A stretch of 64,000 bases of DNA from Phycisphaerales bacterium (GTDB lineage Bacteria > Planctomycetota > Phycisphaerae > Phycisphaerales > UBA1924). The stretch lies in assembly GCA_019750095.1 (NCBI GenBank), contig JAIEOW010000045.1:1-64000 (forward strand). Reading direction: 5' to 3'. A model generated the notes under the pieces. That model had not been told where the DNA came from. It saw only the letters and a program-made list of their open reading frames with translations, and did no database searches. Both the position numbers and the translations under genes were made by a program. This document shows positions 9,294 through 47,853 of the stretch, one piece after another; the stretch's first letter is position 1; every line of letters begins with the position of its first letter.

Positions 9294-9568
9294 CCTTCGG
9301 GAAGCTCGGTGCGCACCGATTGCCGATGAGCCGTCTTCCCAGCGACTTGTTGGGGTTTTCATCGGCGTTCTTGCATGTTCGGCTGGATTATCGCCCCTGA
9401 GGAAGGCGGGGTGTGGGAAGAGCGGAGAGGATGCGCGGAGTGCGCGGGCGGCGGGGCGCGAAAAGGGCCAGCGGAGGGCGCTGCGGACCTTCCGGGTGCG
9501 GTTCCGCGTGTCATGGTGATCCGCGTCGTCTCGATCCACACCCAAGACCCGCATGGGCTGGTACCTTC

Positions 9569-32579: not shown

Positions 32580-32675
32580 CCTCCGTGACCTGCTGATTCC
32601 ACCTTGCGTCTCGACAGCCCGCTTGCCTTCGCGGTCCACAACGCCCGCAACCACGCCACCCTGTACACTCCATCA

Positions 32676-35534
32676 ATGCCCGACCAGACCATCCCCAAGC
32701 AGCTCACCAGCGGCCCGGGTAACGATCCGCGGCCGAATCCGGAGCGGGATCGGTTGATTGCCGACCTGAAGCGGGAGAAGAACTGGAAGCGTTGGGGGCC
32801 GTATCTGGCCGAGCGGCAGTGGGGAACGGTGCGCGAGGATTACTCGGCCGATGGGTCGTGCTGGTCGTACTTTCCGCATGAGCATGCGCGGAGCCGGGCG
32901 TATCGGTGGGGTGAGGACGGGCTGCTTGGGATCACCGATCGCGAGTGTCGGCTGTGCTTTGCGCTCGCGCTGTGGAATGGGCGCGATCCGATCCTGAAGG
33001 AGCGGCTCTTCGGGCTCACGGGGCCAGAGGGCAACCACGGCGAGGATGTGAAGGAGCAGTACTTTTACCTCAACTCAACGCCGACGCACTCGTACATGCG
33101 GGCGAGTTACAAGTATCCGGTGCGCGAGTTTCCGTATGCGCTTCTGACCAGCGAGAACCGCGCCCGCACGCGCGAGCAGCCGGAGTTTGAGCTGGAGGAC
33201 ACCGGCATCTTCGACCACGGCCACTGGGACGTGATGATCGAATACGCCAAGAACACGCCCGACGACATGCTCGTGCGGGTGAGCATCACCAATCGCTCGC
33301 CAAATGTCGAGACGATCCATGTTCTGCCGCAGGCGTGGTTCAGGAACACGTGGGTGTGGGGCTGCAATCACGAGGGGTGCTGGATCAAGCCGCACATGGA
33401 GCTGGTCGCCGAGCCATCCCCGACGGCGGAGTCGGAGGTGGCGACAGATCATGAGTCGCTCGGCAAGGTGCGCATCCTGTATGGTCGGGCATCGGACGGA
33501 GCAAAGCCGACGATGCTCTTCACCGACAATCACACCAACACCGAGCGCTGCTTCGGCGTGCCCAACCAGACGAGCTTCCTGAAGGACGCCTTCCACGACC
33601 GCGTGATCCACGGCAAACAGAGTGCGGTGAACCCGCGGCAGATGGGGTCCAAATGCGCGGGGTGGTACACCCTGACGATCGCACCCGGCGAGAGCATGAC
33701 GATCCCGTGTCGCATCGTTCAGGTGGCACCCGCGGGCGCGATCCAGTCGTATCCGATCCGGGCGATGGGCCTGAGCGCGTTCGACGCGATGTTCGAACGG
33801 ACGTTCGCCGACCGCATCGGCGAGATGCAGCGGTTTTATTCCACCGGGCGGCTGGGCACGTTGAACGCCGAGGAACGCAACGTCGCGCTGCAGGCATATG
33901 CGGGGCTCTTGTGGAGCAAGCAGTTCTATCACTTCATCGTCGCCGACTGGCTGGATGGCGATCGCGATCAGCCGCCGCCGCCCCCCGAGCGCAAGCGCAC
34001 CGGAGTTGGCGGGGCTCGGAACACCGAATGGCGGCACATGTACGCCCGCGACGTGATCCTGATGCCCGACAAGTGGGAGTATCCGTGGTTCGCGGCGTGG
34101 GACCTCGCGTTTCACTGTGTCGCGGTGAGCCACATCGATCCGCATTTGGCCCAGCAACAACTGCTGCTCATGATGCGGGAGTGGTACATGCACCCGTCGG
34201 GGGCGATCCCCGCGTATGAGTTTGCGTTTGGCGATGTGAACCCGCCGGTGCACGCGTGGGCGTGTTGGCGGGTGTATCAGATCACCGGCAGCCGCGGCGC
34301 GAGCGGACCGGGGCAGCGCAACAGGGACTTTCTCGCCCGCGCGTTCCACAAGCTGCTGCTCAACTTCACCTGGTGGATCAACCGCAAGGATCCCGAGGGC
34401 CGCAACATCTTCGGCGGGGGCTTCCTAGGTCTGGACAACATCGGCGTGTTTGATCGCAGCCAGAAGCTACCCGGCGACCACACGCTGGAACAGGCCGACG
34501 GCACGGCGTGGATGGCGTTCTTCTGCGGCACGATGCTCAGCATGGCGCTGGAGCTTGCGCGTGAGGACCCCGCGTATGAAGACGTCGCGAGCAAGTTCTT
34601 CGAGCACTTCATCGCGATCGTCGACGCGATGAATGGATTCCAGGCCGAGGGCCTGTGGGATGAACTCGACGGGTTTTACTACGACCATCTGCGCGTCGGC
34701 GACGGAGCGGGAGAGTCGGTGCCCTTGCGCGTGCGCTCGATGGTCGGGATCATCCCGCTGCTCGCCGCCGAGGTGCTGGAAGAGAACCTGATCGCGCAGC
34801 TTCCCGGCTTTCAGAAGCGCATGAACTGGTTCCTGGAGCACCGGACCGATCTGGCCAAGCACGTCAGCTTCATGTCCACCACCGATGGCCATGAGCACGC
34901 GCTCCTGGCCATCCCCTCGCGCGAGCGGCTGGAGCGCGTGCTGAAGTATGTGCTGGATGAGAACGAGTTCCTCTCGCCCTTCGGCCTGCGCTCGCTCAGC
35001 AAGGTGCATCAGGCCAAGCCCTTCGTGCTCGCCACGCCCGATGGGCAGCGACACGTGGTCGACTATCAACCCGGCGAATCCACCACCAGCATGTTCGGGG
35101 GCAACAGCAACTGGCGCGGACCGGTCTGGATGCCGCTGAACTATCTCCTGATCGAGGCGCTCGACCGCTACCACCACTTCTACGGCGAGCGGTTCACCAT
35201 CGCGTGCACGCTGGGCGGCAAGAAGCGGGAACTGTCACTCGCCGAGATCGCGCACGAGCTTCGCCGGCGGCTCTGCTCGATCGTTCTGCCAGGGGCCGAT
35301 GGCCACCGGCCGTGTTTCGGTGTGCATGAGACGGGCGACACCCGATCCGCGCCTGCACGCGTGATGACCGAGCGTTTCGCGACAGATCCCGCGTGGAAGG
35401 GACTCGTGAACTTCCACGAGTACTTCCACGGCGAGACGGGCCGCGGGCTTGGCGCAAGCCACCAGACCGGATGGTCCGCCCTTGTGGCGCAGATGCTGAA
35501 GGAGATGAGCTTGAAGGGGCAGGCGAAAAGCTGA
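32676..35534 (+). CDS. GH63-family glycoside hydrolase (mannosylglycerate/glucosylglycerate hydrolase-like)
   Basis: N-terminal WKRWGPYLAERQWGTVREDYS...YFPHEHARSRAYRWGEDGLLG signature of bacterial GH63/MGH enzymes; about 950 aa. Confidence 0.65.
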   Translation: MPDQTIPKQLTSGPGNDPRPNPERDRLIADLKREKNWKRWGPYLAERQWGTVREDYSADGSCWSYFPHEHARSRAYRWGEDGLLGITDRECRLCFALALWNGRDPILKERLFGLTGPEGNHGEDVKEQYFYLNSTPTHSYMRASYKYPVREFPYALLTSENRARTREQPEFELEDTGIFDHGHWDVMIEYAKNTPDDMLVRVSITNRSPNVETIHVLPQAWFRNTWVWGCNHEGCWIKPHMELVAEPSPTAESEVATDHESLGKVRILYGRASDGAKPTMLFTDNHTNTERCFGVPNQTSFLKDAFHDRVIHGKQSAVNPRQMGSKCAGWYTLTIAPGESMTIPCRIVQVAPAGAIQSYPIRAMGLSAFDAMFERTFADRIGEMQRFYSTGRLGTLNAEERNVALQAYAGLLWSKQFYHFIVADWLDGDRDQPPPPPERKRTGVGGARNTEWRHMYARDVILMPDKWEYPWFAAWDLAFHCVAVSHIDPHLAQQQLLLMMREWYMHPSGAIPAYEFAFGDVNPPVHAWACWRVYQITGSRGASGPGQRNRDFLARAFHKLLLNFTWWINRKDPEGRNIFGGGFLGLDNIGVFDRSQKLPGDHTLEQADGTAWMAFFCGTMLSMALELAREDPAYEDVASKFFEHFIAIVDAMNGFQAEGLWDELDGFYYDHLRVGDGAGESVPLRVRSMVGIIPLLAAEVLEENLIAQLPGFQKRMNWFLEHRTDLAKHVSFMSTTDGHEHALLAIPSRERLERVLKYVLDENEFLSPFGLRSLSKVHQAKPFVLATPDGQRHVVDYQPGESTTSMFGGNSNWRGPVWMPLNYLLIEALDRYHHFYGERFTIACTLGGKKRELSLAEIAHELRRRLCSIVLPGADGHRPCFGVHETGDTRSAPARVMTERFATDPAWKGLVNFHEYFHGETGRGLGASHQTGWSALVAQMLKEMSLKGQAKS

Positions 35535-35538
35535 CTTT

Positions 35539-35564
35539 GGTGGCACAGGCGTCCCGCCTGTGCA
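35539..35564. repeat. REP-like palindromic element (copy 2, reverse orientation of 5807-5834)
   Basis: GGTGGCACAGGCGTCCCGCCTGTGCA is the reverse complement of the element at 5807-5834. Confidence 0.6.
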
Positions 35565-35991
35565 ACGAGGAGCATCGAGTGATACGGATCCCAGTTGCGA
35601 TCGGGCATGGGATCCACCGTGATTTCAATCTGGGCTTGGCCGACCTTGGTCCTCAGCCCGAAGGGTTGATCGTCAGTAGCCGGGGCGTGAGCGAGGCTTT
35701 GCGAGCCACCCCCGGAAAGCGTGTTGCGAAACATCTGGTTGTTTATCTGTGATGGCACGCCGAAGGCGTGCTCGATGCGCGTCCGCCGAGCAGCACAGCG
35801 AGCACTCCTTCGGAGTGCCCTGGATCCCACCTCCGCGGCGACCCAAACGTCTTCTTCTTCCGGGCGTGTCGCTGCGCTCCACGCCCGGCTACTGACGATC
35901 AGCCCTTTGGGCTGACCACAGATCACATTCTGTGTGCCGCACAATGCTGTAGTGCACGGATCGCACGCAAAACAGCATGAGGACACGTCGC

Positions 35992-37068
35992 CTATAGCAG
36001 CATCTCGGCGATCTGCACCGCATTCAGCGCGGCACCCTTGCGCAGCTGGTCGCCGCAGATAAACAGGTCAAACGCGATCGCGGGCTGGTCGTAGTCCGCG
36101 GCCGTCGCGCTCGCGGGCAAGCGCGAGGCGTCGGGGCGGATGCGACCGACAAGTACATCGTCTTTGCCGCTGGCCTTCAGCGGCGTGGGGAAGAGGTTGG
36201 CCGCGCGATCGTCGACGACCCGGACACCCGGGAACTTGGACAGCACCTCGCGGACCTGGGCCGTGGTCGCGGGTGTCTTCAAGGTCACGTTCACGCTCTC
36301 GGCGTGGGCGCGTCGCACGGGCACGCGGATGCACGTCGCACTCAGCGCCGCCGAGGGATCGTTCCAGATCTTGCGCGTCTCCAGGATCACCTTGCTCTCT
36401 TCGACGTTCAGGCCCGTCACGGGATCGACGGCGGTGTTGTGGCTGAACAGGTTGAACGCGTACGGCTCGTGAAACACGCCGCCCGTCTCGATCCCGGGGC
36501 GCACCACTTTGCCCGCCAGATCATCGCGGGTCTGGGCTTCCAGTTCGTCCATGCCCTTGGCCCCGGCCCCGCTGGCGGCCTGATACGTGCTGACGATCGT
36601 GCGCTCCACGCCAAAGGCCCGGCGGATCGGCGTGAGCGCCATCAGCAGGATGATCGTCGAGCAGTTGGGGTTCGCGATCACGTTGGGCAAGCTCGCCGAG
36701 GCGTGCAGGTTGCGGATCGACTCCGGATTCACCTCCGGAATCGTCAGCGGCACGCCGTCGGACATGCGAAACGCCGACGAGTTGTCCACGATCACGCACC
36801 CGGCCTTGCCCGCGGCGGGGGCAAACTCCTTGCTGATCGACGAGCCCGCGCTGAACAGAGCGATGTCCACGCCGCGCAGCGACTCGTGCGTCAGCGGTTC
36901 GACGGTCAGCGTGCCCCCGCGATACGGCAGCTGCTGTCCCGCCGAGCGGGGCGAGGCGAGGGCTTTGATCGTCCCATGCGGGAACTTCCGCTGCTCAAGG
37001 ATCTCGAGCATCTCTCGGCCAACGGCGCCGGTGGCTCCGGCAACAGCGATCGTGGGTGTCTTGTTCAT
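35992..37068 (-). CDS. asd: Aspartate-semialdehyde dehydrogenase
   Basis: IAVAGATGAVGREMLEIL NAD-binding motif; active-site region SNPNCSTIILLMAL; C-terminal dimerisation domain. Confidence 0.9.
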   Translation of the reverse strand: MNKTPTIAVAGATGAVGREMLEILEQRKFPHGTIKALASPRSAGQQLPYRGGTLTVEPLTHESLRGVDIALFSAGSSISKEFAPAAGKAGCVIVDNSSAFRMSDGVPLTIPEVNPESIRNLHASASLPNVIANPNCSTIILLMALTPIRRAFGVERTIVSTYQAASGAGAKGMDELEAQTRDDLAGKVVRPGIETGGVFHEPYAFNLFSHNTAVDPVTGLNVEESKVILETRKIWNDPSAALSATCIRVPVRRAHAESVNVTLKTPATTAQVREVLSKFPGVRVVDDRAANLFPTPLKASGKDDVLVGRIRPDASRLPASATAADYDQPAIAFDLFICGDQLRKGAALNAVQIAEMLL

Positions 37069-37261
37069 ACGCAAGATCGGAGCGTACGCCCATCCGAGGC
37101 CTGGGCGCGAGCCCTGGCACCAACGACGACTGAGCACCCAGTTCCATCGGGGTGGCGGGTTGTACTCCCTTGACTTCCAGCGGGCGTGCGCCGCAGGTGC
37201 CTAGGCTCGCGCCCGGGCCTCGGATTGAATATCCTTTCAGGCACGGTTCACGCCGTGACCC

Positions 37262-38626
37262 TTGAGGTGCTGCATGCTGCTTTCCCTGCCCGCCGTGCTC
37301 TCGATCACCCTGACGAGCGTCTGTGCGATCGCGCAGCCCGCGCCCGATCCGATGTCGAGCCGCCTCGACCTGACCAGCTCGACCAAAGCCGCGGACACGG
37401 GCAAGGCCCCGCCCCCGATCTTCACCGACCTCACCCTCGCCGACGCTCTGGCCAAGAACACCGGCGAGCATCTGCTGATCGTCAAGTTCACCGCCGAGTG
37501 GTGCGGCCCCTGCAAGCAGATGGACCGGACCACCTGGCGCGACCAGCGGGTGATCGACTGGGTCAAGCAGCACGGCACGGCGATCCAGGTCGACGTCGAC
37601 AAGCGTCCGGATGACGCCAAGAGCAACCGCATCTCGGCGATGCCGACCACCGTCGTCTTCAAGGAGGGCAAGCCGATCCAGCGGCGCGTCGGGTTCATCA
37701 CGGCGGATCAGATGCTGACCTTCCTGTCCTCGGCCAAGAACCCTAATCAGGGCCAGCACGAGGCGCAGGTGAAGCCCGCCGAGGGCGGCGCAGCGCCCAA
37801 GGCCGCGATGTCGATGCAGGATCGCCTCCGCGCCGCCCGTGATCTCGCCGACAACGACAAGCGCGATCAGGCCACCAGCGAGTACGTCTGGCTCTGGAAG
37901 AACATTCTTGAGCACGAGCCCTCGATGTACGGCGTGCGCCGCTCGTTCATGACCGGCGACATGCAGCGGCTGGCCTTTGTGCACAAGCCCGCGTCGGAGG
38001 CATTTGCCGCGTTGCGTGATGAAGCCGAGACGCGCCTCAAGGGGCCAGACAAGACTTTCGAGGATCTTCTGGATTGGATCGCGCTCAACGGCGTGGTCGA
38101 TCAGCAGGACAAGACCCTGGCGTGGTTCGATCGGATCAAGGGCGACGCCGACAGCGGGCCGACACTCAAACGCGTCGGGTTCACGATCGATCAGTTGCTG
38201 ATCGACAGGGGCCGCTGGGCCGATCTCGCGCTGATCTGGCCCGACCCGCTCGGCACGCTCAAGAACGAACGCGACCTCTGGCTCAACATGCCCAACATGG
38301 GCGGCGACGCGGAGCGCAAGGCCGAGCTCGATCGCATGAGCCGCAACACGGTCCGCACCAAAGCCGCCCAGATCTACGTCTCGCAGCTCGCCATCGGCAA
38401 GCCCGACGTCGCCCAGCGGGTCCAGGACGACGCGCTGAAGGCCGACGACACGCCCGAGATGCGCATCGCCCTCGTCAAGCTCGCGCTCAAGGCCAAACTC
38501 GCCCGTCCCGAGCACGACGCGCTGCTCAAATCCGCGATCCGCCCCGACAACCCCCCCGCTCTTTCCACCGAGATCGAGCGTCTCCAGGCCGAACTCGCCG
38601 CCGCGCTCGCCAAGGGCACGGGCTGA
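37262..38626 (+). CDS. Secreted thioredoxin-domain protein
   Basis: Signal peptide; thioredoxin fold with a WCGPC active site (FTAEWCGPCKQM); long helical C-terminal extension. Confidence 0.7.
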   Translation: MRCCMLLSLPAVLSITLTSVCAIAQPAPDPMSSRLDLTSSTKAADTGKAPPPIFTDLTLADALAKNTGEHLLIVKFTAEWCGPCKQMDRTTWRDQRVIDWVKQHGTAIQVDVDKRPDDAKSNRISAMPTTVVFKEGKPIQRRVGFITADQMLTFLSSAKNPNQGQHEAQVKPAEGGAAPKAAMSMQDRLRAARDLADNDKRDQATSEYVWLWKNILEHEPSMYGVRRSFMTGDMQRLAFVHKPASEAFAALRDEAETRLKGPDKTFEDLLDWIALNGVVDQQDKTLAWFDRIKGDADSGPTLKRVGFTIDQLLIDRGRWADLALIWPDPLGTLKNERDLWLNMPNMGGDAERKAELDRMSRNTVRTKAAQIYVSQLAIGKPDVAQRVQDDALKADDTPEMRIALVKLALKAKLARPEHDALLKSAIRPDNPPALSTEIERLQAELAAALAKGTG

Positions 38627-38704
38627 TCGCACGCCCTTGCCGCCCGCACATCTCGGCGAACCACCAGCGGCAGCCGCGCGGGCAACTCGTCTAAACCGCC
38701 CGCT

Positions 38705-40219
38705 ATGCCGACCCCCTCCCGCCCCGCCCCGACCACCCGAGCCAACGCCCCCCTCACCATGCCCTTCCGCGGCGTGCTCGACATGATCGGCAACACGCCG
38801 ATGCTCGAGCTCTCCAGGCTCGACACCGGGTCTCCCGACATCCGGCTCTTCGGCAAGATGGAGCTGATGAACCCGGCGGGGTCGATCAAAGACCGCATCG
38901 GGCTCGCGATGATCGAGGCCGCCGAGCGCGACGGGCGGCTCAATCCCAACGCCACGCCCACGCCGACGATCATCGAGGCGACCGCGGGCAACACGGGCCT
39001 GGCCCTCGCGCTCGTCGGCAAGCAGCGTGGCTACCACATCAAGTTCGTCATGCCCGACAAGATGTCGCAGGAGAAGATCCAGCACCTGCGGGCGATGGGC
39101 GCCGAGGTGATCCTCACCCGCTCCGACGTCGAGAAGGGCCACCCCGAGTATTACCAGGACATGGCGGCCGCGCTTGCCAAGACCATCCCGAACTCGCTCT
39201 ACGTGAACCAGTTCGGCAACCTCGACAACCCCAAGGCGCACTACGACACCACGGGCCCGGAGATCTGGAAGCAGATGGAGCCCGTCGGCGGCATCGACGC
39301 GTTCGTCTGCGGCGTCGGCTCCGGCGGCACGCTCTCGGGCGTGGGCAAGTTCCTGCGCGAGAAGAACCCCGCGTGCAAGCTGATCCTGGCCGACCCGGCG
39401 GGCAGCATCCTCACGCCGCTGGTGAACGAGGGCAAGGTGGTCAAGCCCGGCTCGTGGCTGGTCGAGGGCATGGGCGAAGACTTTGTGCCCGACATCTGCG
39501 ATCTCAAGCTCGTCAGCGAGGCGATCGCCGTCACCGACGCCGAGGCCTTCTTCGCCGCGCGTGAACTGCTGGCCAAGGAGGGCATCCTCAGCGGCTCCAG
39601 CACCGGGTGCATTCTCTCCGCCGCGCTGACCTATTGCCGCAAGATGGCGGCCCACAAGAAGGTTGGAGGGGGGGGCCCCATGAACGTCGTCACGCTCATC
39701 TGCGACAGCGGGGCCAAGTACCTGTCCAAGATGTTCAACGACTTCTGGATGATCGACAACGGCTTCATCAAGCGGGAAAAGACCGACGACCTCCGCGACC
39801 TCATCGCCCGCCGCCACGACTTCAACGAGGACCACACCCTCCGCGAGACCGACCCGGTGCGCAACGTCATCAAGCGCATGGGCATGTACGGCGTCAGCCA
39901 GATGGTCGTGAAGGACGAGTCCGGCAAGGTCTCGGGCATCGTCGACGAGGGCGACATCCTGCTCGCGGTGAACATCGACGGCGGGGGCCGGGGGGGCGAC
40001 GAGAAACACCCGGGCGAGGGCGGCGCGTTCGACCGCCCCGTGAGCGACTTCATGACCCGCCGCCTCGAGACCATCCGCCCCGAAGCCCCGGTCAGCGCAC
40101 TCATGCCCATCTTCCGCGCCGACCGCGTCGCGATCGTCGTCGACAAGCAGGGCACGTACTTCGGGCTGATCACCAAGTTCGACATGATCAACTACCTGCG
40201 CTCGCAGCTGGTGCGGTGA
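38705..40219 (+). CDS. Cystathionine beta-synthase (PLP-dependent CysK-like domain plus a tandem CBS pair)
   Basis: GNTPMLEL, the lysine motif SIKDRIG and GNTGLALA; C-terminal CBS domains; contains G8 and G7 homopolymer tracts. Confidence 0.85.
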   Translation: MPTPSRPAPTTRANAPLTMPFRGVLDMIGNTPMLELSRLDTGSPDIRLFGKMELMNPAGSIKDRIGLAMIEAAERDGRLNPNATPTPTIIEATAGNTGLALALVGKQRGYHIKFVMPDKMSQEKIQHLRAMGAEVILTRSDVEKGHPEYYQDMAAALAKTIPNSLYVNQFGNLDNPKAHYDTTGPEIWKQMEPVGGIDAFVCGVGSGGTLSGVGKFLREKNPACKLILADPAGSILTPLVNEGKVVKPGSWLVEGMGEDFVPDICDLKLVSEAIAVTDAEAFFAARELLAKEGILSGSSTGCILSAALTYCRKMAAHKKVGGGGPMNVVTLICDSGAKYLSKMFNDFWMIDNGFIKREKTDDLRDLIARRHDFNEDHTLRETDPVRNVIKRMGMYGVSQMVVKDESGKVSGIVDEGDILLAVNIDGGGRGGDEKHPGEGGAFDRPVSDFMTRRLETIRPEAPVSALMPIFRADRVAIVVDKQGTYFGLITKFDMINYLRSQLVR

Positions 40220-40239
40220 GATTGGAACGCGAAGTTCGC

Positions 40240-41040
40240 GAAGTTCTCGAAGGAAGGCCTGAACGCGGAGACGATGCAGGAGGGGCGGAGGGACGCGGAG
40301 AGATGGCTTTGGGTTCGAGGCATTGAGGCAGGGAATCAAGGCAGGAACGCGGAGGAGATGCGGGAGGGGCGGAGGAGCGCGGAGGGATGGCGTTGGGTTT
40401 GAGGCATTGATTCAGGGGATCTAGGCATCAACGCAGAGGAGAGGCAGGAGACGCAGAGGAACGCAGAGAGATGGCCTTGGGTTTGAGGCATTGAGGCGGG
40501 GGATCGAGGCGGGAACGCGGAGGGGATGCGGGAGGGGCGGAGGAGCGCGGAGAGATGGCTTTGGGTTTGAGGCAGTGAGGCGGGGGATGAAGGCATTCAC
40601 GCAGAGGAGAGGCAGGAGACGCGGAGCAACGCAGAGAGATGGCCTTGGATTCAAGCCAAATGCATTGAAGTCATCGATTCCTTGGCTCAAACCAAAACGC
40701 CTCCCTCCGCGTCCCTCCGCCCCTCCCGTCTCGCCTCTGCGTTCCTGCCTTGAACCCAACGCCATCCCTCCGCGTCCCTCCCCCCCTCCTGCATCTCCTC
40801 CGCGTTCCCGCCTTGAACCCAACGCCATCTCTCCGCGTCCCTCCCCCCTCCTGCATCTCCTCCAAGTTCCTGCCTTGAACCCAACGCCATCCCTCCGCGT
40901 CCCTCCGCCCCTCCCGTCTCGCCTCCGCGTTCCTGCCTTGAACCCAACACCATCTCTCCGCGTCCCTCCCCCCCTCCGCGTTCCTGCCTCCCTTCGCGTC
41001 CATCGCGCCCTTCGCGTTTCCATCTCCTCCACCGTTCCAT
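40240..41040. repeat. Palindromic tandem repeat array: about 5 direct copies of an approximately 84-bp unit, then about 5 copies in reverse-complement orientation
   Basis: Units end in GATGGCNTTGGGTTTGAGGCA; the forward block is 40254-40650, the symmetry centre is about 40655-40680, and the inverted block is 40690-41040. Confidence 0.8.
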
Positions 41041-41046
41041 CCCGCA

Positions 41047-41240
41047 CAGGAACAACCGACTCGGGCCACGGAACAGCTCGCCCGGACCTTGGCACCTTTC
41101 ACTCGCGCCCAGCAACGGCTCAACCGTTCCACGCACCGGCTCGGCCGTGCCGAGGCACCGCCCACCCGTTCCGAGGCACGGCTCGATCGTCCCCTGGAAC
41201 ACCTCGACCGTTCCCAGGAACGGCTCTCCCGTTCCCGAGC
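41047..41240. repeat. Tandem array of about 8 copies of a 21-bp unit containing the inverted motif GGAAC-N7-GTTCC, immediately upstream of the 41278 gene
   Basis: Recurring ggctcNNccgttccNaggcac units, e.g. AGGAACGGCTCTCCCGTTCC. Confidence 0.7.
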
Positions 41241-41277: not shown

Positions 41278-41970
41278 ATGCCCGACTACATCCCCCGCTC
41301 CGACGCCGAGTACGCCGCGTACATGCAGCACTTTGTGCCCGCGCTGGACTATTGGTGGAGCCGGCAGGGCCTTGATCCCGGCACGCTCGACGAGCTGCTC
41401 TACGCCGCCGGCGACTTTGACGCCGCCTACGCCGCGCACATCGCGCAACAGGCCGCCGCCGAGGGCGCCCGCCACGCCAAAGACGCCGCCCGCGCCCGCC
41501 TGACCGCCGCCGTGCGGCCGCTGGTCAGCTTCGTGCAGAGCTACCCCGCAACGACCGACGCCGCGCGGGCCGAACTGGGCATCACCATCCGCCCCCCAAA
41601 GGGCACGCCCGCCCGCACGCCGTCGTCGCGCCCGCTCGCGCTGGTGGAGAGCGGGCAGCGGCTCACGCACCAACTGCGGCTGGTGGATGAGTCCACGCCG
41701 ACCCGCCGCGCCCGGCCCGCGGGCGTGCTCGGGGCCGAGGTGTGGGTGAAACTCGTCGCCCCCCCCAATGCGGACACCCCCGCGCCGACCGACCCCGCCC
41801 GTGATCCAAGTAGTTTCACGTTCCTGACCATGACCACCCGCCCGAGTTTCCGCGCCGAGTTCAAGGCGGGCGAGGGCGGAAAAACCGCCGTCTACATGGC
41901 CCGCTGGATCAACACACGCGGCGAAAAGGGGCCGTGGTCGGAGATCACGACGGCGACGGTGGCGGCGTAG
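41278..41970 (+). CDS. Hypothetical protein, paralog A of a pair flanking the RM gene
   Basis: 230 aa; shares the N-terminal M-x-DYIP, LGIT, TPTRRARPAGV and C-terminal RW..GE.GPWSE...AT.AA motifs with the 46090 gene; no family recognised. Confidence 0.5.
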   Translation: MPDYIPRSDAEYAAYMQHFVPALDYWWSRQGLDPGTLDELLYAAGDFDAAYAAHIAQQAAAEGARHAKDAARARLTAAVRPLVSFVQSYPATTDAARAELGITIRPPKGTPARTPSSRPLALVESGQRLTHQLRLVDESTPTRRARPAGVLGAEVWVKLVAPPNADTPAPTDPARDPSSFTFLTMTTRPSFRAEFKAGEGGKTAVYMARWINTRGEKGPWSEITTATVAA

Positions 41971-42030
41971 GGCATCGACACGCCGTCCGCAGGACCCGCT
42001 GCGCGGGAAAGACCGGCACCGATGTTTGTC

Positions 42031-42145
42031 GTCTTCGCCCCAACGGGGCGCAGGGATGTAGCCACGGGTGAAGCCCGCGCTTTGCGGGCGCAACCCGTGG
42101 AAAGCGTGTCCCCCGCGCGGGACTGCCCCGGAGGGGCAGAGGGGG
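42031..42145. repeat. Left inverted repeat flanking the RM gene (hairpin-containing)
   Basis: About 85% identical, in reverse complement, to 45780-45868 over about 78 bp; contains the stem CCACGGGT...ACCCGTGG. Confidence 0.7.
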
Positions 42146-42146
42146 C

Positions 42147-45100
42147 TTACTTGAGTGGGATCGTCTTCTTGGCGCAGGCGGCGTAGTTGGCGTTCAAGTC
42201 GTCGGCGAGTTCCAGCAGTGCGGCGATGCGGCGGACGATCTCCGAGACGTAGACCAACTCATCGCCGGTGAGCGGGCGACCGAGGATCGCCTTTTCCCGG
42301 TACGAAAGCCACTTGTTCACGACGGGATAACCGCCGAGCGTCAACGCCCACGCGTCATTGGGCACGTTGCGCCAACCGACGCGCTCGTTGATCCACACGT
42401 CCACCGCGCCTTCGGGATCGGCGTCGTTGGGCGTGACTTTGCCCTCGCGCATCGAGACGCGGCCCTGCTTGTCCACGCTCGCCCAACCGCCGTCCACGAT
42501 CATGTCCTCGTCCGGGTCGATCTGGCCGCCGCCGACCTTGAACGGCACCGCGAGCGAGCGGAGGGCGGCGCGAATCTTGCCCGACGTAACGCCTTCGACG
42601 GCCCGGCCCGGCATAAGCAGGTCCGCGACCAAACGGCCCAGCTTGGCGGAGGTGACGAGCGTCTTGGCTTCGGTCGGCACGGGCACGCGGGGCCAATCGA
42701 CGCGGAGGGCGTCGTGGTTCTGCTGGGCGTAGGCGGGCGCGGCGAGGGCGGCGATGCAGTGAAAGAACACCTCGTCGTTGTGGCTCAGTGCGGCATCGGT
42801 CCAGCCGTGGCCGTCCTTGGTGCGGCCCTTGACACCGTGCGCCTCGCAGATGCGTTCAAGCCACCTCTCTTCCACCCCCGGGCCGATGGATTCGCCCATG
42901 AGCGATTCGTGACGACGCCGCATCGGGAAGTAAGTCGCGTAGGGGTCGAAGAAGTAGTACGAGCCGATGTGCTCGGTGACGACTGGAATCGGGAACTCTT
43001 CGTGCCGGGGCTTCTGCGTACACGCGAGGAAAAGGTTTTCCGGGAAGGCGTTCTCGGCGAACTCGGGACGGCGGCGATGCACGAGCTTCAGCCTGTCCTC
43101 ATCAAACATGTAGCGAGTGTCGAAGGGTTGCCATGCGATAGGCACGACCTTCTTTGGATCGTACTTGAGCTTCTTGGCCTTTGCTTGGGCTCTGACGGAA
43201 GATGCCTCGTATCCCGCTTCGTCGGTCATCAAGTCGGCACAGGCTTCCGCAAGGTCCGCGTCCGACACGGACTTGTCGAAGTACGCCTTCATGCGTTCTT
43301 CCAGCGGTGCGCGGTCCATGTCCACCAGTGCCCGGCCCCGTCCCGGCTGCACGCCCTTGAACGATTCGCCGAGCAAGGCGGGCAAAGTGGGCCACACCAT
43401 CCACTGGGCCGATCGTCGGGTGGGAAGAAGCGACCAACGCCCCTCCAGCGTGGGCGCGGCCTCGCGCGGATTGCCCTCCTTGCGGTCTTTGACCGAAGCC
43501 AGAAGCCGCTCGCGGCGTTTCTCGGCGGACGCGTCGTCGAAATCGCGGAACTCGACGCGGGCCACCGTAGCGGTGCTGGCTTTCTTGTCTCCGGCTCCCT
43601 TCTTGACCATCGTGGCGATGGCGGTACCGATCCGGATACCGGGCGATGTGCCCCGCATGGCGAACACCGTCTCGCTGGCCGCGCCGTCCGGGGCACGCTC
43701 TTTGGCCTTGCGGTCGCCGTGGAGGTTGTCCACGTAGATGGTGTCGAACCCTTGGAGCAAGCGTTCGCGCATGAGGACGTGGGGGATGCCGTTGAGCCAC
43801 GAATAGTTGCTGATGTAGCACACGATGCCGCGCCGCCCCACATCGCCGATGCGCCGCTCGGCCAATCGGAAGAAGCGGATGTAGGGATCATCGAGCGTCT
43901 GCTTGCGGATGCCGAACCGCTCGTTCAGCCCTTCCTTGTACGGTCGGATCAAGTCGCCCTCTTCGTCAAGGGCCACGCCCTTGTTGCCCCGGTACGGCGG
44001 GTTGCCCAGGACCACGAGGATCGGCGCTTCCCGCTTGATCTTGGCGGCGCGGTCCTGCTCGTCTTGCAAGAACCCGAAGGCCAGCGTGCCTTTGGCCCCT
44101 TTGGGCGGCTCCCAACCCGTGAGCGCGTTGGTGAGGTAGACGCTTACCCGCTCATCCTTGCCGAGTTTGCCGCCGAGTCCGCGAAGCAGGATGCCGAGTT
44201 GCAGGTGCGCGACCACGTAGGGGGCGGTCAAAATCTCGAACCCGAAGACGCGCTCGCAGAGGGCTTTCTTCACCTTCGACACGGCGAGCGCGCCGTGCCC
44301 CTGATCGTCGAGCGTGGCGTGGATGCGGCGGGCCACTTCAAGCAGGAACGAGCCGGTACCGACGGCGGGATCAAGCACGAACACGCGGTCATCGGCCAAT
44401 CCGTCCTTGATGCCGAGTTCCGAGCGAAGCAGGTGGTCCACCCGTTCGACCATGTAGCGCACGATCTCCGGGGGCGTGTACCACACGCCCAGTTCTTCGC
44501 GGAGTTCGGGGTCGAACGCTTCAAGGAAGGGCTCGTAGAAGAGCGTGATGGCGTGGTCGGCGTCGAAAGACGCGAAGAACTCGGCGTGATTCACGCGGTT
44601 GAGGCTCGCGGCGGCCCATTCGAGCGTCTCCCGAAGGTCGAGGTCTTTGAGTCGCGTGGGCTTTGCGACTTCGTCAAAGAGGTTGGCGATCAGTGGCAAG
44701 TCCAAGTGCTCGGACGCGCGCCGCCAGTCGAACGCGGGCGGCTTCCTGCCCTTGGGCAGCCCGGCCTTCCAGAGCATCCAAGCCGAGAACAGGCCGTAGA
44801 ACAAGGTCTGGACGAGCGACGAGCGGAAAAACCGCATTCCCTGTTCGTCGGTGAAGGTCAACCCCAGCGTCCGCTCGAAGGCTTCCTGAAGGGGCTTCAA
44901 GTCGTCGATCGAGTGCCGACCGAGCCGGCGCTTGGCCTCGCGGGCGTGGCGGGCCAAGTCCGCCGCCAAGTCCTTGGGCTTGACGATGGGCGAAGGGCGA
45001 GCGAAGACGCCTTCGAGGTAGTCCGTCAGCCCCTGCTCGTGTTCCTCGGCGAGCTTGGCAGGCTTGGCCCTCCAGAAAGCCTCGGATGTCGCGCTCAGGC

Positions 45101-45500
45101 GATAGCGGGTTTCGACTTTGGCCTCGCCCGTCTCGGCATCGCGGGCGACGAACACGAACTCTCGAAAGTTGGTCACCAGCACGAAGCCGTAGCGCTTCCA
45201 ATACTTGGACACTTGGTCCCCGGAGGCGGTGTCATGAATGTTGTCCTTGGTGCCCTTGACCTCAACAACCAGCCGCAGATTCCCCGACTTCTTTTCGAAG
45301 ATGCCAAGGTCCGGCTGGCCCGCGCCCTCCTGCTTCAGCTCCATCGTCGCAAAGAGTTCCGGGTCGAAGTCCTCGCCTATTGCGGTAAGCAAGGCTTCGA
45401 GTTTGCTCTTGTAGGACTGCTCGGCCGTGGCCTTGCCGGTGCCGTGCACATCATGCAGGCCTTCTAAGTATGCAAGGACGGGTGATTTCTTCTTTGACAT
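42147..45500 (-). CDS. Type IIG (MmeI-family / Type IIL) restriction endonuclease fused to an N6-adenine DNA methyltransferase
   Basis: N-terminal PD-(D/E)xK-like region (DLGIFEKK...LVVEVKG ... FVLVTNFREF, compare MmeI YVLVCDFQRF); gamma-class methyltransferase motif I VLDPAVGTGSFLLEV and motif IV LGNPPYRGNKG; 1117 aa. Confidence 0.8.
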   Translation of the reverse strand: MSKKKSPVLAYLEGLHDVHGTGKATAEQSYKSKLEALLTAIGEDFDPELFATMELKQEGAGQPDLGIFEKKSGNLRLVVEVKGTKDNIHDTASGDQVSKYWKRYGFVLVTNFREFVFVARDAETGEAKVETRYRLSATSEAFWRAKPAKLAEEHEQGLTDYLEGVFARPSPIVKPKDLAADLARHAREAKRRLGRHSIDDLKPLQEAFERTLGLTFTDEQGMRFFRSSLVQTLFYGLFSAWMLWKAGLPKGRKPPAFDWRRASEHLDLPLIANLFDEVAKPTRLKDLDLRETLEWAAASLNRVNHAEFFASFDADHAITLFYEPFLEAFDPELREELGVWYTPPEIVRYMVERVDHLLRSELGIKDGLADDRVFVLDPAVGTGSFLLEVARRIHATLDDQGHGALAVSKVKKALCERVFGFEILTAPYVVAHLQLGILLRGLGGKLGKDERVSVYLTNALTGWEPPKGAKGTLAFGFLQDEQDRAAKIKREAPILVVLGNPPYRGNKGVALDEEGDLIRPYKEGLNERFGIRKQTLDDPYIRFFRLAERRIGDVGRRGIVCYISNYSWLNGIPHVLMRERLLQGFDTIYVDNLHGDRKAKERAPDGAASETVFAMRGTSPGIRIGTAIATMVKKGAGDKKASTATVARVEFRDFDDASAEKRRERLLASVKDRKEGNPREAAPTLEGRWSLLPTRRSAQWMVWPTLPALLGESFKGVQPGRGRALVDMDRAPLEERMKAYFDKSVSDADLAEACADLMTDEAGYEASSVRAQAKAKKLKYDPKKVVPIAWQPFDTRYMFDEDRLKLVHRRRPEFAENAFPENLFLACTQKPRHEEFPIPVVTEHIGSYYFFDPYATYFPMRRRHESLMGESIGPGVEERWLERICEAHGVKGRTKDGHGWTDAALSHNDEVFFHCIAALAAPAYAQQNHDALRVDWPRVPVPTEAKTLVTSAKLGRLVADLLMPGRAVEGVTSGKIRAALRSLAVPFKVGGGQIDPDEDMIVDGGWASVDKQGRVSMREGKVTPNDADPEGAVDVWINERVGWRNVPNDAWALTLGGYPVVNKWLSYREKAILGRPLTGDELVYVSEIVRRIAALLELADDLNANYAACAKKTIPLK

Positions 45501-45779
45501 CCTGTCTCCGAAGATTGAGGTTGGTTGGACGGCATTGTACGGTCAGTTCACCGCCAATGCCGGGGCTGCCGCCCCCGGCACCCCCGCTCAAGGCACTCGG
45601 AATGCACGACGATCGCGGCGGGCGGTTCTCTTCCGGGCAGGGAGAGGTGCGGAGAGGGCGGCACGCCCTCTCTGCATCAGCGCGACACAGTGACGGATAG
45701 GTTGGAAACCAGTCCCGGTTGAGCGGGTGTCGGTGGACGGGAGCTTCCTCCGCCCCTGCCGGGGCGGGTCGGGGTGATT

Positions 45780-45868
45780 CACGCTGTCCACGGGTTGCGC
45801 TGCGCTCCACCCGTGGCTACAGCCCGGCGCCCCTCCGGGGCGAAGAGTGAGCGGAGCGGGGCGAAGAG
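45780..45868. repeat. Right inverted repeat flanking the RM gene
   Basis: Reverse complement of 42031-42108; lies about 280 bp upstream of the RM start codon. Confidence 0.7.
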
Positions 45869-46089
45869 GCGCGGCGGTTCATCCTCATATATGTTCCGAC
45901 TCGGTGTGCTCTGTGTCTCTGTGGTGAAAATTCCTGGGGCCGGTGAAGTCGAGCATTTCTCTTGCCGACAAAACCGAAAGTGTCCTCCGCGTGCCGATTG
46001 ACGGCTTGGGTAGCGGCTTGACGCCCCAGCGCAGCGTGTGCAGGGCAGCACGAGCAAGCCGCCGAATCCATTGATGGAGACACTGAATC

Positions 46090-46749
46090 ATGGCTGACTA
46101 CATCCCCGGCCCCGATGCGTCGTTTCAGGCTTGGCAATCCAACTTTGTGACCTACGCCAACGCCAATCTCGCCGCGCTCGGGCTCACCGCGCCGGACATG
46201 GCCCCGATCACGGCCGCGCAGACCGCTTGGGCCACCGCCTTTCCGGCCCACGTCACCGCCGTCAACGCGGCCAAGGCCGCGAAACAGACCAAGGACGAGG
46301 CCCGGGCCGCGTATGTCGCGGTGATCCGGCCGCTCGTGCGCCGGCTGCAGGCGTCCGCCGTGGTGAGCGATGCAGAGAAGGCGTCGCTCGGCATCACCGT
46401 CGCGCAGGCCCCGACGCCCATCGGCGCGCCCACCACGGCCCCCATCTGCTCCATCGAGTGCGGCAACCGCCTCCAGCAGACCCTCCGCTTTGTCGACTCC
46501 GCCACGCCCACACGCAAGGCCAAGCCCGCGGGCGTCATGGGCGTCGAGATCTGGAACAAGGTCGGCACCACGCCCCCCGCTGGCGAGGCCGACCTCCGCT
46601 TCGTCGCCGTGGACACCAACGCGCCGTACGTCATGAACTTTGACTCCGCCGACGGCGGCAAGGTCAACTATGTCTGGATGCGATGGGTCAGCCCCACCGG
46701 CGAGCGCGGGCCGTGGAGCGAGCAGGCCCAGGCGACCATCGCGGCCTAA
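46090..46749 (+). CDS. Hypothetical protein, paralog B of the RM-flanking pair
   Basis: 219 aa; about 35-40% identical to the 41278 gene by manual alignment. Confidence 0.5.
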   Translation: MADYIPGPDASFQAWQSNFVTYANANLAALGLTAPDMAPITAAQTAWATAFPAHVTAVNAAKAAKQTKDEARAAYVAVIRPLVRRLQASAVVSDAEKASLGITVAQAPTPIGAPTTAPICSIECGNRLQQTLRFVDSATPTRKAKPAGVMGVEIWNKVGTTPPAGEADLRFVAVDTNAPYVMNFDSADGGKVNYVWMRWVSPTGERGPWSEQAQATIAA

Positions 46750-46834
46750 CGCCCCGATCATCGACAGCACATGCAGAACCTCCAACGGCCCCGGCACATG
46801 CTGGGGCCGTTGTGCTGCGCGACGGCAGGGGTGA

Positions 46835-47115
46835 TCGTTTCAAGGCTGGGTTTGAACGCGAACGGCGCGAAGGACTCGAAGGAAGGCAGGAACGCGAAGG
46901 GGGGGAGGGAGGTGCGGAGGAACGCGGAGGGAGGCGTGTGGGATCGAGCCAGAGAATCCCGGCCTTGAACCCAGGACCATCCCTCTGCGTTGCTCTGCGC
47001 CTCTTGTCTTTCCTCTGCGTGGATGCCTTGATCCCCCGCCTCGATGCCTCGAACCCAAGGCCATCTCTCCGCGCTTCTCCGCCCCCCTCCGCATCTCTCC
47101 GCGTTCCTGTCTTCC
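46835..47115. repeat. Second, shorter palindromic repeat array of the same 84-bp family (one forward unit, about 2 inverted units)
   Basis: GAAGGCAGGAACGCGAAGGGGGGGAGGGAGGTGCGGAGGAACGCGGAGGGAGGCG, then inverted copies CTTGAACCCAAGGCCATCTCTCCGCGC... Confidence 0.65.
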
Positions 47116-47175
47116 AAAGAGCCCATCGCGCGGTATGCTGCGGCATCGCTCGCGTCCGTCGCCCACATCAGGAGC

Positions 47176-47853
47176 ATGACCATGCCCCGCCTCGGCCCCA
47201 CCTCGCCCGCCGACCATGTTGATCAGCCCGTGCATCCGCCGCTGGACCTGGCCAAGTGGATCCGCACCAACGCCAAGCATCTCAAGCCGCCGGTGAGCAA
47301 CAAGCAGTTGTTTGTGGAGAGCGACGACATGGTCGCCTTTGTCTCCGGCGGGCCCAACACGCGCAACGACTATCACTTGAACCCGACCGAAGAGCTGTTC
47401 TATCAGCTCAAGGGGACGATCGCCGTGCGGATTCGCCCGCTCGACGGCTCGCCGCCGCGGGATGTGGTCATCAAGCAGGGCGAGCTCTTCCTGCTCCCGC
47501 GGTGGGTGCCGCACCGTCCGCAGCGCCCGGCGAACACGCTCGGGCTCATCATCGAGTTTCCGCGGCCCAAGGGCCAGCTTGACGGGCTCCGCTGGTACTG
47601 CCCCAAGTGCGACCATCTCGTCCACGAGGCGCGCTGGCGGCTGAAGAAGATCGACGAAGACCTCAAGATCATCATGGAAGCGTTCTGGGGCGGGCCCGCC
47701 AAACGCCGCACGTGCACCGCCTGCGGCCACGTGATCGAACGCGCGGGCGCGATCGAGCTCAAGGGCGGCAAGGTCAAGGCCACGGCCCGCACATCCGGCA
47801 AACCGCGCGGCGGTGCCAAGCCCGCGTCAACCCGGCCGCGCTCGCGATCCTGA
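47176..47853 (+). CDS. 3-hydroxyanthranilate 3,4-dioxygenase
   Basis: Cupin core NPTEELFYQLKG...GELFLLPRWVPHRPQR; C-terminal rubredoxin-like CPKCDH...CTACGH. Confidence 0.8.
   Translation: MTMPRLGPTSPADHVDQPVHPPLDLAKWIRTNAKHLKPPVSNKQLFVESDDMVAFVSGGPNTRNDYHLNPTEELFYQLKGTIAVRIRPLDGSPPRDVVIKQGELFLLPRWVPHRPQRPANTLGLIIEFPRPKGQLDGLRWYCPKCDHLVHEARWRLKKIDEDLKIIMEAFWGGPAKRRTCTACGHVIERAGAIELKGGKVKATARTSGKPRGGAKPASTRPRSRS

Follow-up and report, generated by a model that had tools for sequence, protein, structure and literature searches.

How does a restriction module of phage origin come to sit between two housekeeping genes, and what do the long palindromic repeats on either side of it have to do with its arrival? 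The question is raised by a 64,000-nucleotide stretch (the window in what follows), part of an 82,559-bp NCBI contig in the metagenome-assembled genome (MAG) of an uncultured Phycisphaerales bacterium. Here the genes for cystathionine beta-synthase (CBS) and 3-hydroxyanthranilate 3,4-dioxygenase (3-HAO) are separated, in this order, by a repeat array (array A), a series of 21-bp repeats, a first cassette gene (paralog A), a repetitive extragenic palindromic (REP) element, a restriction-modification (RM) gene on the minus strand, another REP, a further cassette gene (paralog B), a hairpin and a second repeat array (array B); the genes farther out on both flanks are housekeeping genes. The sequence of array, paralog, RM gene, paralog and array had been read off in an earlier note on this DNA, and it stands: the two paralogs are 36% identical (E 1e-46), and the gene between them encodes a Type IIG/ISP RM enzyme. 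We found that the two arrays are inverted sister copies, that nothing else lies between the chromosomal backbone and the cassette, and that both belong to a family of intergenic foldbacks in Phycisphaerales. That they also helped to install the cassette is our preferred but tentative explanation.

Array B had been described as a second, degenerate copy of the 84-bp array A, and both the unit-profile matches and the alignment bear this out. In a blastn comparison, the two arrays align over 246 nt at 78% identity (E 6e-52, 188 bits). Arm-wise dinucleotide shuffles that keep the purine/pyrimidine skew (n = 100) averaged 27.4 bits and did not exceed 42.5 bits, and natural 300-nt windows taken from the 64-kb sequence (n = 207) scored at most 29.7 bits. 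Since 188 bits exceeds both, the match is not noise from low-complexity GGAGG runs. The earlier note had named a lack of significant alignment beyond such runs as its refutation, and this outcome did not occur. A profile hidden Markov model of the unit recovered 13 units in the window, 10 in array A and 3 in array B. Those in array B have E-values from 1.5e-12 to 4e-15, and all other matches in the window are no better than E = 3. Likewise, the 84-bp consensus from array A matches the window solely at 40254-41018 and 46883-47113. The four strings quoted for array B are all present where they were reported, and so is the order, in which a single forward unit is followed by the centre and a pair of inverted units, but the reported span of 46835-47115 needs correction: the element extends from about 46849 to 47128, and 46813-46835 is the conserved end of the cassette, outside the array.

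Both arrays are built from the same two kinds of module. At both ends of each array lies a terminal module, in which the tip TTGGAAC or TTTGAAC precedes three GCGAAG-type sub-repeats, each about 9 nt long. Between them stand units made of GGAAC, four GCGGAG-type sub-repeats about 10 nt long and then GATGGCNTTGGGTT; a 21-nt tail is present in some units and missing from others. The arms of the array B palindrome (46862-46951 and 47045-47134, 90 nt each) are 71% complementary, with 50% G in the left arm and 44% C in the right arm, and the array folds into one long hairpin both as DNA (-76.5 kcal/mol, z -4.7) and as RNA (-158 kcal/mol, z -6.1). Over its full 806 nt, array A folds as DNA with -311.6 kcal/mol (z -20.8), and it is the strongest foldback within the 1.53 Mb of Phycisphaerales DNA examined. 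In a scan with Rfam 15, no family matched the arrays above its gathering threshold, the plant and animal microRNA-precursor hairpins reaching 31-42 bits against thresholds of 137-168. A CRISPR array was considered and rejected, as the units are contiguous, diverged and palindromically arranged, without identical direct repeats and unique spacers.

Array B is turned around relative to array A. Its reverse complement scores higher against array A than array B itself does (global score 338 vs 263; blastn 188 vs 82.5 bits), and the units correspond in order, B_r2 with A_f4, B_r1 with A_f5 (84%), centre with centre and B_f1 with A_r1 (81%). Thus, array B reproduces, in inverted orientation, the middle portion of array A together with the terminal modules, and this inversion makes the symmetry of the locus stronger than the earlier note had stated. 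The best-conserved part is the pair of cassette-facing tips (46855-46910 vs the reverse complement of 40963-41018), which are 91% identical over 56 nt. Units within array A are up to 94% identical to one another, whereas corresponding units of the two arrays share 78-84%, indicating a recent expansion of array A and an old split between A and B. The longest exact run common to both arrays is 18 nt, which suggests that they are now too diverged for mutual recombination. Direct repeats of the attL/attR type were rejected on the same run length and on the inverted orientation.

The outer and inner limits of the arrays coincide with edges of homology to other sequences. Comparison sequences are labelled L001 to L117, of which L026-L105 are 80 CBS loci of relatives and L106-L109 are IMG/VR contigs. 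On the left, nucleotide homology to the closest relative (L026; CBS 93% identical in amino acids) covers 32663-40221 and ends one base before array A. On the right, homology to the closest relative (L111; 3-HAO 89% identical in amino acids) starts at about 47127-47129, the outer edge of array B, where the distal module tracks the array A terminal module to ...CCATCGCGC and then enters sequence common to L111. These edges, drawn from two relatives and no empty site, support the proposal that the arrays bound a variable region. On the inner sides, homology to cassettes elsewhere ends at 46825-46835 (at 46835 for L117), and the left edge of the conserved cassette is formed by the 21-bp operator-like repeats, which follow directly after array A. 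Because the relatives' homology stops at the outer edges and the cassette homology at the inner edges, the two arrays are the entire junction DNA between backbone and cassette, and the segment that differs from the relatives runs from array through cassette to array, 40222 to about 47128. The CBS site itself has been rearranged, since a cystathionine gamma-lyase homologue is present in the CBS locus of 61 of the 80 relatives (directly after CBS where inspected) and no such gene exists in the 64-kb window. In L026, the gene downstream of CBS is a different one, absent from the window. We also observed that the reverse transsulfuration pair of CBS and gamma-lyase is broken in the window lineage exactly at the start of array A (40219-40222).

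The cassette between the arrays recurs elsewhere. Paralog B has 424 homologues (E <= 0.001), of which the best 120 listed are 77-94% identical, and all organism-named sequences among these 120 come from Phycisphaerales or Planctomycetota. Its conservation exceeds that of CBS, for which identity outside one close relative does not rise above 78%. The readable contexts share one layout, with paralog A (227-234 amino acids), one or two variable genes and paralog B (219 amino acids), and the neighbours, like the cargo (Table 1), change from one context to the next. Because this layout recurs with other cargo, with other neighbours and in phage-like contigs, the 5.8-kb module of paralog A, restriction enzyme and paralog B is acquired, phage-derived DNA; paralog B was absent from the phage and plasmid collections searched. 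The two-paralogue bracket looks like a Phycisphaerales-specific, phage-borne hotspot for accessory, mostly defence-type genes. The 3' end of an A-type gene survives as a remnant downstream of paralog B in L117 (16502-16585) and within the cargo region of L001 (8208-8297), and the 3' ends of paralog A and paralog B share a conserved stretch, GGGCCGTGGAGCGA...GCGACGGTGGCGGC. Together, the remnants and the shared stretch hint that cargo is swapped by recombination at the ends of the paralog genes.

The arrays have smaller relatives as well. Small intergenic foldbacks, traced from weak matches in L080, occur in many Phycisphaerales loci. Their arm consists of a tip (TTCACC, TTGAAC or TGGAAC) and about three tandem sub-repeats of 8-10 nt (RCRGAG or GCGAAG), and is mirrored by an arm ending in ...GGTGAA. 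Clusters of these sub-repeats number 58 in 1.53 Mb, compared with 0-2 in shuffles. The tip-plus-sub-repeat grammar of the arrays matches that of L038, L041, L042, L051, L080 and L117. Measured against composition-matched shuffles, similarity to the arrays reaches z 5.5-9.7 for the inner element of L038, three elements of L080 and L051, and only 0.8-2.7 for L029, L041, L117 and the L038 element after CBS; the family is heterogeneous. One arm of the inner L038 foldback is 84% identical over 31 nt to the proximal tip of array B. Ordinary members measure about 150-500 bp and have one arm module per side, which the arrays exceed with 5 + 5 units in A and 1 + 2 units in B, and no array of this kind was found at other loci in the 1.47 Mb examined. 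The most fitting reading of the 84-nt unit is that an arm module of the wider family has been amplified, and arrays A and B are over-expanded members of it that lack an open reading frame (ORF). The literature searched contains no description of the array repeats or of the wider family. As palindromic or foldback intergenic repeats, the arrays are of a known kind, of which they represent a new, expanded form; for this lineage, that literature describes no such repeats.

Four family members lie at one orthologous site (L042 12806-13275, L052 12700-13190, L038 13015-13180 and L041 12869-13060), where the downstream gene starts with MNHAARIIDANANR. The foldback arms of L042 and L052 enclose a GxxExxY gene (TIGR04256, PD-(D/E)XK-type), and the orthologous foldbacks of L038 and L041 contain no ORF. 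The arms co-vary, with GCGGAG/CTCCGC in L041, GCAGAG/CTCTGC in L042 and GCCGAG/CTCGGC in L052. Here the palindromic frame is conserved, while its arms have undergone compensatory changes and an ORF within it has been gained or lost. Genuine foldbacks or arms of such elements also occupy the 3' spacer of CBS in about five of the 80 loci; a first pass had placed foldback tips after CBS in some 28 loci, and these proved to be mostly the motif GCGCGGTGATGCC inside the cystathionine gamma-lyase gene.

How, then, might the arrays have come to fill both joints? The explanation that we favour, at a little under an even chance, is that they are expanded foldback sister copies that took part in the installation of the cassette and persist as spacers. 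Arm modules would have been tandemly amplified in this genome into 63- and 84-nt units, and the arrays would have been substrates of the event that placed the cassette between CBS and 3-HAO. Either a segment flanked by two foldbacks may have moved as one, or donor and chromosomal foldback copies may have recombined. Integration via palindromic repeats would leave the array centres mutually inverted, as is seen. Today, the arrays would probably persist as spacers that form hairpins and separate the cassette from the adjoining housekeeping genes. We infer the causal role in the insertion from this arrangement, and likewise any insulating effect.

A number of observations weigh against a part of the arrays in the insertion. 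Only two array copies are visible, both within the 64-kb window of this genome. No copy turned up when the GTDB representative genomes were scanned with an exact degenerate pattern, a scan of JGI metagenomes gave 18 single matches, all by chance and without wider similarity, two of three scans of IMG/VR were empty and one gave chance matches in coding DNA but no array, and blastn against phage and plasmid collections gave no array match. Nor did the collections searched contain a second instance of the array-cassette-array arrangement. None of the other cassettes is flanked by these arrays or by other long repeats, indicating that the arrays are not part of usual cassette travel. In or adjoining the array-cassette-array segment there is no transposase, integrase or REP-associated tyrosine transposase (RAYT) gene, and no direct repeat that could be a target-site duplication flanks either array or the whole segment, the 5-nt GCGGT alone being shared. 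The left and right edges come from two different relatives, and the search for an empty site found none of paralog A, paralog B, the RM gene and 3-HAO within 10 kb in the 80 CBS loci. With a divergence of about 18-22% between the arrays, any joint origin must be old. The spacer directly downstream of CBS contains full foldbacks in L029 and L038 and related arms, rich in pyrimidines, in L060 and L080, so array A may be an old resident of the CBS spacer unrelated to the cassette. At the orthologous site, the family looks vertically inherited with co-varying arms, which argues for a structural role of pairing rather than for mobility.

Such points feed the main rival, according to which the arrays are local structured elements at gene ends (3' stabilisers, terminators, hairpins in 5' untranslated regions or RNase III sites) that were expanded by slippage and had no part in the arrival of the cassette. 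The family is common, its 58 clusters being spread over 27 of 118 sequences, it is found in the CBS 3' spacer of the four loci just named, in several cases a start codon follows a member at a distance of 8-45 nt, the arm co-variation at the orthologous site implies selection for pairing, and both arrays fold far better than shuffles. However, coincidence would also have to account for two arrays that are mutual closest relatives, are the sole copies in 64 kb, face each other inverted and fill exactly both gaps between backbone and cassette. As for the candidate roles, a scan for intrinsic terminators found no terminator-like site in either array and no T-run (U-tract in the transcript) after the arms, and a conserved hairpin of its own already follows paralog B, just ahead of array B. 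We regard coincidence as possible, though rather on the unlikely side. A different kind of local role, in which the arrays extend the 21-bp operators as a protein-binding platform and offer GGAACG half-sites at multiples of 21 bp to a shared lineage-specific factor, appears quite improbable. Each unit does contain GGAACG or CGTTCC once, and the series extends into the operator region (spacings including 63, 125, 42, 42 and 21), the periods of the units (84 and 63) are divisible by 21, and GGAACGCGAAG (one mismatch) is found 12 times against 2.3 expected, with 10 of the 12 in the arrays. Yet the phase drifts (positions modulo 21 of 0, 0, 20, 8, 20 and 7), the operator sites are local palindromes and the array sites are not, array B is far from any operator, and no DNA-binding protein was identified, paralog B being a helical hairpin with an FN3 domain.

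Two further alternatives question the arrays as such. Assemblers and amplification are known to fail at long palindromes, the source here is a MAG, and a second assembly of the same strain (Logan assembly L110) breaks at 46784, just before array B, so foldback chimeras or collapsed or mis-joined repeats had to be considered. However, L110 is 99.99% identical over 11 kb and reproduces array B base for base together with the sequence downstream, and therefore array B is not the artefact of one assembler; this confirmation covers array B, not array A. The arms are 71-75% complementary and the units 60-94% identical, which a chimera from a single template would not give, and elements in unrelated assemblies share both the grammar and significant similarity. 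An assembly artefact is accordingly very unlikely. Least credible of all is that the arrays encode a repetitive protein. The periods of 84, 63 and 21 are all divisible by three, some frames across array B are free of stops, and ORFs of 150-290 codons overlap the arrays, but ORFs of this size are ubiquitous in DNA of 66% G+C. The G+C content at third codon positions is 0.59-0.72 in all six frames across the arrays and 0.80-0.96 in the genes of the window, each frame across array A has 2-8 stops, and the inverted arms would need two unrelated reading frames. Both arrays are non-coding, and a coding signal is absent.

The favoured explanation, that the arrays took part in the installation, has a parallel in eukaryotes. 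The foldback (FB) elements of Drosophila and other eukaryotes have long inverted arms of tandem sub-repeats, the arm length varying with the repeat number, and a central spacer that is small or absent; pairs of them can bracket and, in Drosophila, mobilise the intervening DNA. The arrays resemble FB elements in their inverted arms of tandem sub-repeats, their variable length, their small or absent spacer and the bracketing of DNA by a pair. They differ in being bacterial, in having no sequence relationship to FB elements, in the amplification of the arm module to units of 63-84 nt, and in that no mobility, target duplication or transposase was seen. As in foldback or composite transposons, two inverted repeats bracket the carried DNA and abut the cassette ends, but evidence of movement, such as a second site, an empty site or a transposase, was not found. 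A bolder version of the favoured explanation would make the array-cassette-array arrangement a bacterial counterpart of foldback-mediated transposition, in which two foldbacks with tandem sub-repeat arms captured and moved a phage defence cassette, and would make the family an undescribed class of mobile or self-maintaining palindromic elements with co-varying arms and an optional GxxExxY PD-(D/E)XK nuclease as its own enzyme. We consider this version improbable.

Bacterial systems offer partial likenesses. Like miniature inverted-repeat transposable elements (MITEs), the foldbacks are short, non-coding, intergenic elements with terminal inverted repeats (TIRs) and strong hairpin potential, and members that bear an ORF (GxxExxY in L042 and L052) occur beside ORF-less ones. 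In contrast to MITEs, there is no target-site duplication and no recognisable parent insertion sequence, the arms are tandem sub-repeats of 8-10 nt and not a transposase-binding TIR, and inheritance looks vertical at one site, with compensatory arm changes. With REPs and bacterial interspersed mosaic elements (BIMEs), the partners of the Y1-type RAYT transposases, the arrays share the clustering of intergenic palindromic repeats. However, the array units measure 63-84 nt and not 20-40 nt and lack a GTAG or CGTC head, their orientation flips once at the centre and does not alternate, and no RAYT gene is present in the window. True REPs of the GTAG type are separate elements of this locus, at 42058 and 45803, and the Y1_Tnp gene of the L001 cassette accompanies REPs, not these arrays. 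In Escherichia coli P2 and P4, hotspots of defence genes lie between conserved phage or satellite genes. The cassette, though not the arrays, is similar, as two conserved genes bracket one or two variable, mostly defence-type genes and the cassette occurs in phage-like contigs. It differs from the P2 and P4 hotspots in that the bracketing genes are mutual paralogues without an assigned function, and in that the module as a whole has an array of 21-bp operator-like repeats and also occurs alone in chromosomes.

If the arrays were the joints through which the cassette entered, this locus would exemplify something rare in bacteria, the carriage of cargo by long foldback repeats, and would show how a phage-borne defence module can be fixed between housekeeping genes without an integrase. 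Independently of any role in entry, the locus exposes two features of the almost unstudied order Phycisphaerales (Planctomycetota). One is a family of intergenic foldbacks, in which the sub-repeat arms co-vary and a GxxExxY nuclease gene lies inside some members; the other is a conserved bracket of two paralogues around variable defence-type genes, present in phages and chromosomes alike. Either of them could mark new defence genes in this order. In addition, palindromes of 0.3-0.8 kb of the array type are likely break points in metagenome assemblies.

Table 1. Positions of the arrays, their modules, the cassette and its flanking genes in the window, and of related cassettes in comparison sequences
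Feature	Sequence	Position	Strand	Description
CBS gene	Window	38705-40219	+	Left backbone gene; PALP and CBS domains
Array A	Window	40220-41025	none	806-bp foldback; period of 84 in the five forward units and of 63 in the five inverted units, terminal modules outside
Operator-like repeats	Window	41108-41236	+	Six tandem 21-bp palindromic repeats GGAACGG-N5-CCGTTCC upstream of paralog A; left end of cassette
Module (cassette)	Window	41278-46835		Paralog A, RM gene, paralog B
Paralog A	Window	41278-41970	+	230 amino acids; no known family
RM gene (cargo)	Window	42147-45500	-	Single-polypeptide Type IIG / Type ISP enzyme, 1117 amino acids; Pfam Type_ISP_C (5.5e-34), N6_Mtase
Paralog B	Window	46090-46749	+	219 amino acids; N-terminal helical hairpin and C-terminal FN3 domain
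Hairpin after paralog B	Window	46783-46835	+	Conserved hairpin (46783-46812) and last conserved cassette bases; right end of cassette
Array B	Window	46849-47128	none	Imperfect foldback palindrome of 280 bp; first arm rich in purines, second in pyrimidines
Proximal terminal module	Window	46849-46882	+	Cassette-proximal end of array B; tip TTTGAAC and three sub-repeats of about 9 nt, GCGAACGG / CGCGAAGGA / CTCGAAGGA
Unit B_f1	Window	46883-46958	+	Single forward unit adjoining the centre; nhmmer E 1.5e-12; best unit match A_r1 (81%)
Unit B_r1	Window	46962-47029	-	Inverted unit, CAGAG subtype; nhmmer E 4.4e-15 (match 46955-47029); best matches A_f5 (84%) and A_f3 (83%)
Unit B_r2	Window	47030-47113	-	Full 84-nt inverted unit with 21-nt tail; nhmmer E 7.7e-15 (match 47039-47113); 87% identical to the 84-bp consensus
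Distal terminal module	Window	47114-47128	-	Distal end of array B; about 16 nt shorter than the full module
3-HAO gene	Window	47182-47853	+	Right backbone gene
Cassette	L001	6437-10660		Cargo SUKH and Y1 transposase
Cassette	L002	7382-10660		Cargo of two genes without assigned function
Cassette	L003			Cargo of two genes without assigned function
Cassette	L004	7874-10660		Cargo GRDP and TauD; insertion splits an RND efflux operon
Cassette	L005, L006			Cargo and insertion as in L004
Cassette	L007	2739-5807		Cargo Fic
Cassette	L117	10001-16408		Cargo 1546-amino-acid helicase with MTES_1575 nuclease domain
Cassette	L106-L109			Cargo GT4 glycosyltransferase-radical SAM fusion and others; contigs carry terminase, capsid, helicase and methylase genes

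As regards the genes of the cassette, paralog A is identical (100%) to an NCBI hypothetical protein with the locus tag K2W85_04875, and its next best homologue is 74% identical; it is thereby far more variable than paralog B, whose best homologue is 94% identical. Searches of Pfam, PHROGs, NCBIfam, PADLOC and PDB sequences gave no family for the two cassette paralogues. The AlphaFold2 model of paralog B has a mean predicted local distance difference test score of 85.9, and fold searches with it gave FN3 matches, including phage tail proteins. PADLOC assigns the RM enzyme to REase_MTase_IIG (2.9e-96).

Upstream of each paralog A lie 6-10 tandem repeats of 21-bp period, every one of them with a short palindrome. 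Outside the window, such arrays were located at 6179-6350 in L001, 7132-7312 in L002, 2469-2654 in L007 and 9440-9640 in L117. The palindrome varies by lineage (GGAACGG..CCGTTCC, CCGTCGC..GCGACGG or CTCCGG..CCGGAG), and the repeats resemble a cooperative operator array co-evolving with its putative binding protein. At the other end of the cassette, the hairpin after paralog B is conserved in L002, L007, L106 and L117. Position 1 of the Logan assembly L110 falls inside this hairpin, at 46784 of the window, a start point that would be expected if the cassette end occurs in more than one context in the sample and the assembly graph branches at the cassette edge.

The remaining spacers of the locus hold structured elements of other kinds. 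The GTAG-type REP hairpins (GTAGCCACGGGTG...) lie at 42040-42110 (+) and 45776-45842 (-), inverted around the RM gene, and a REP doublet is found in another spacer of the window (35653-35915). In the L001 cassette, the Y1_Tnp (RAYT) gene is surrounded by members of this REP family (8351-9632). Upstream of paralog B, a hairpin at 45640-45685 (GCGGAGAGGGCG-GCA-CGCCCTCTCTGC) belongs to a wider conserved block (45552-45682); it is 89-96% identical in the phage-like contigs L107-L109, exceeds the adjacent coding sequence in conservation and matches no Rfam family. Also upstream of paralog B, at 45899-45927, we found a solo pyrimidine-rich foldback arm, CTCTGTGTCTCTGTGGTGAA. A complete foldback in L117 (9667-9967), which shares its subtype with this solo arm, encloses an ORF of 65 amino acids between the operator repeats and paralog A.

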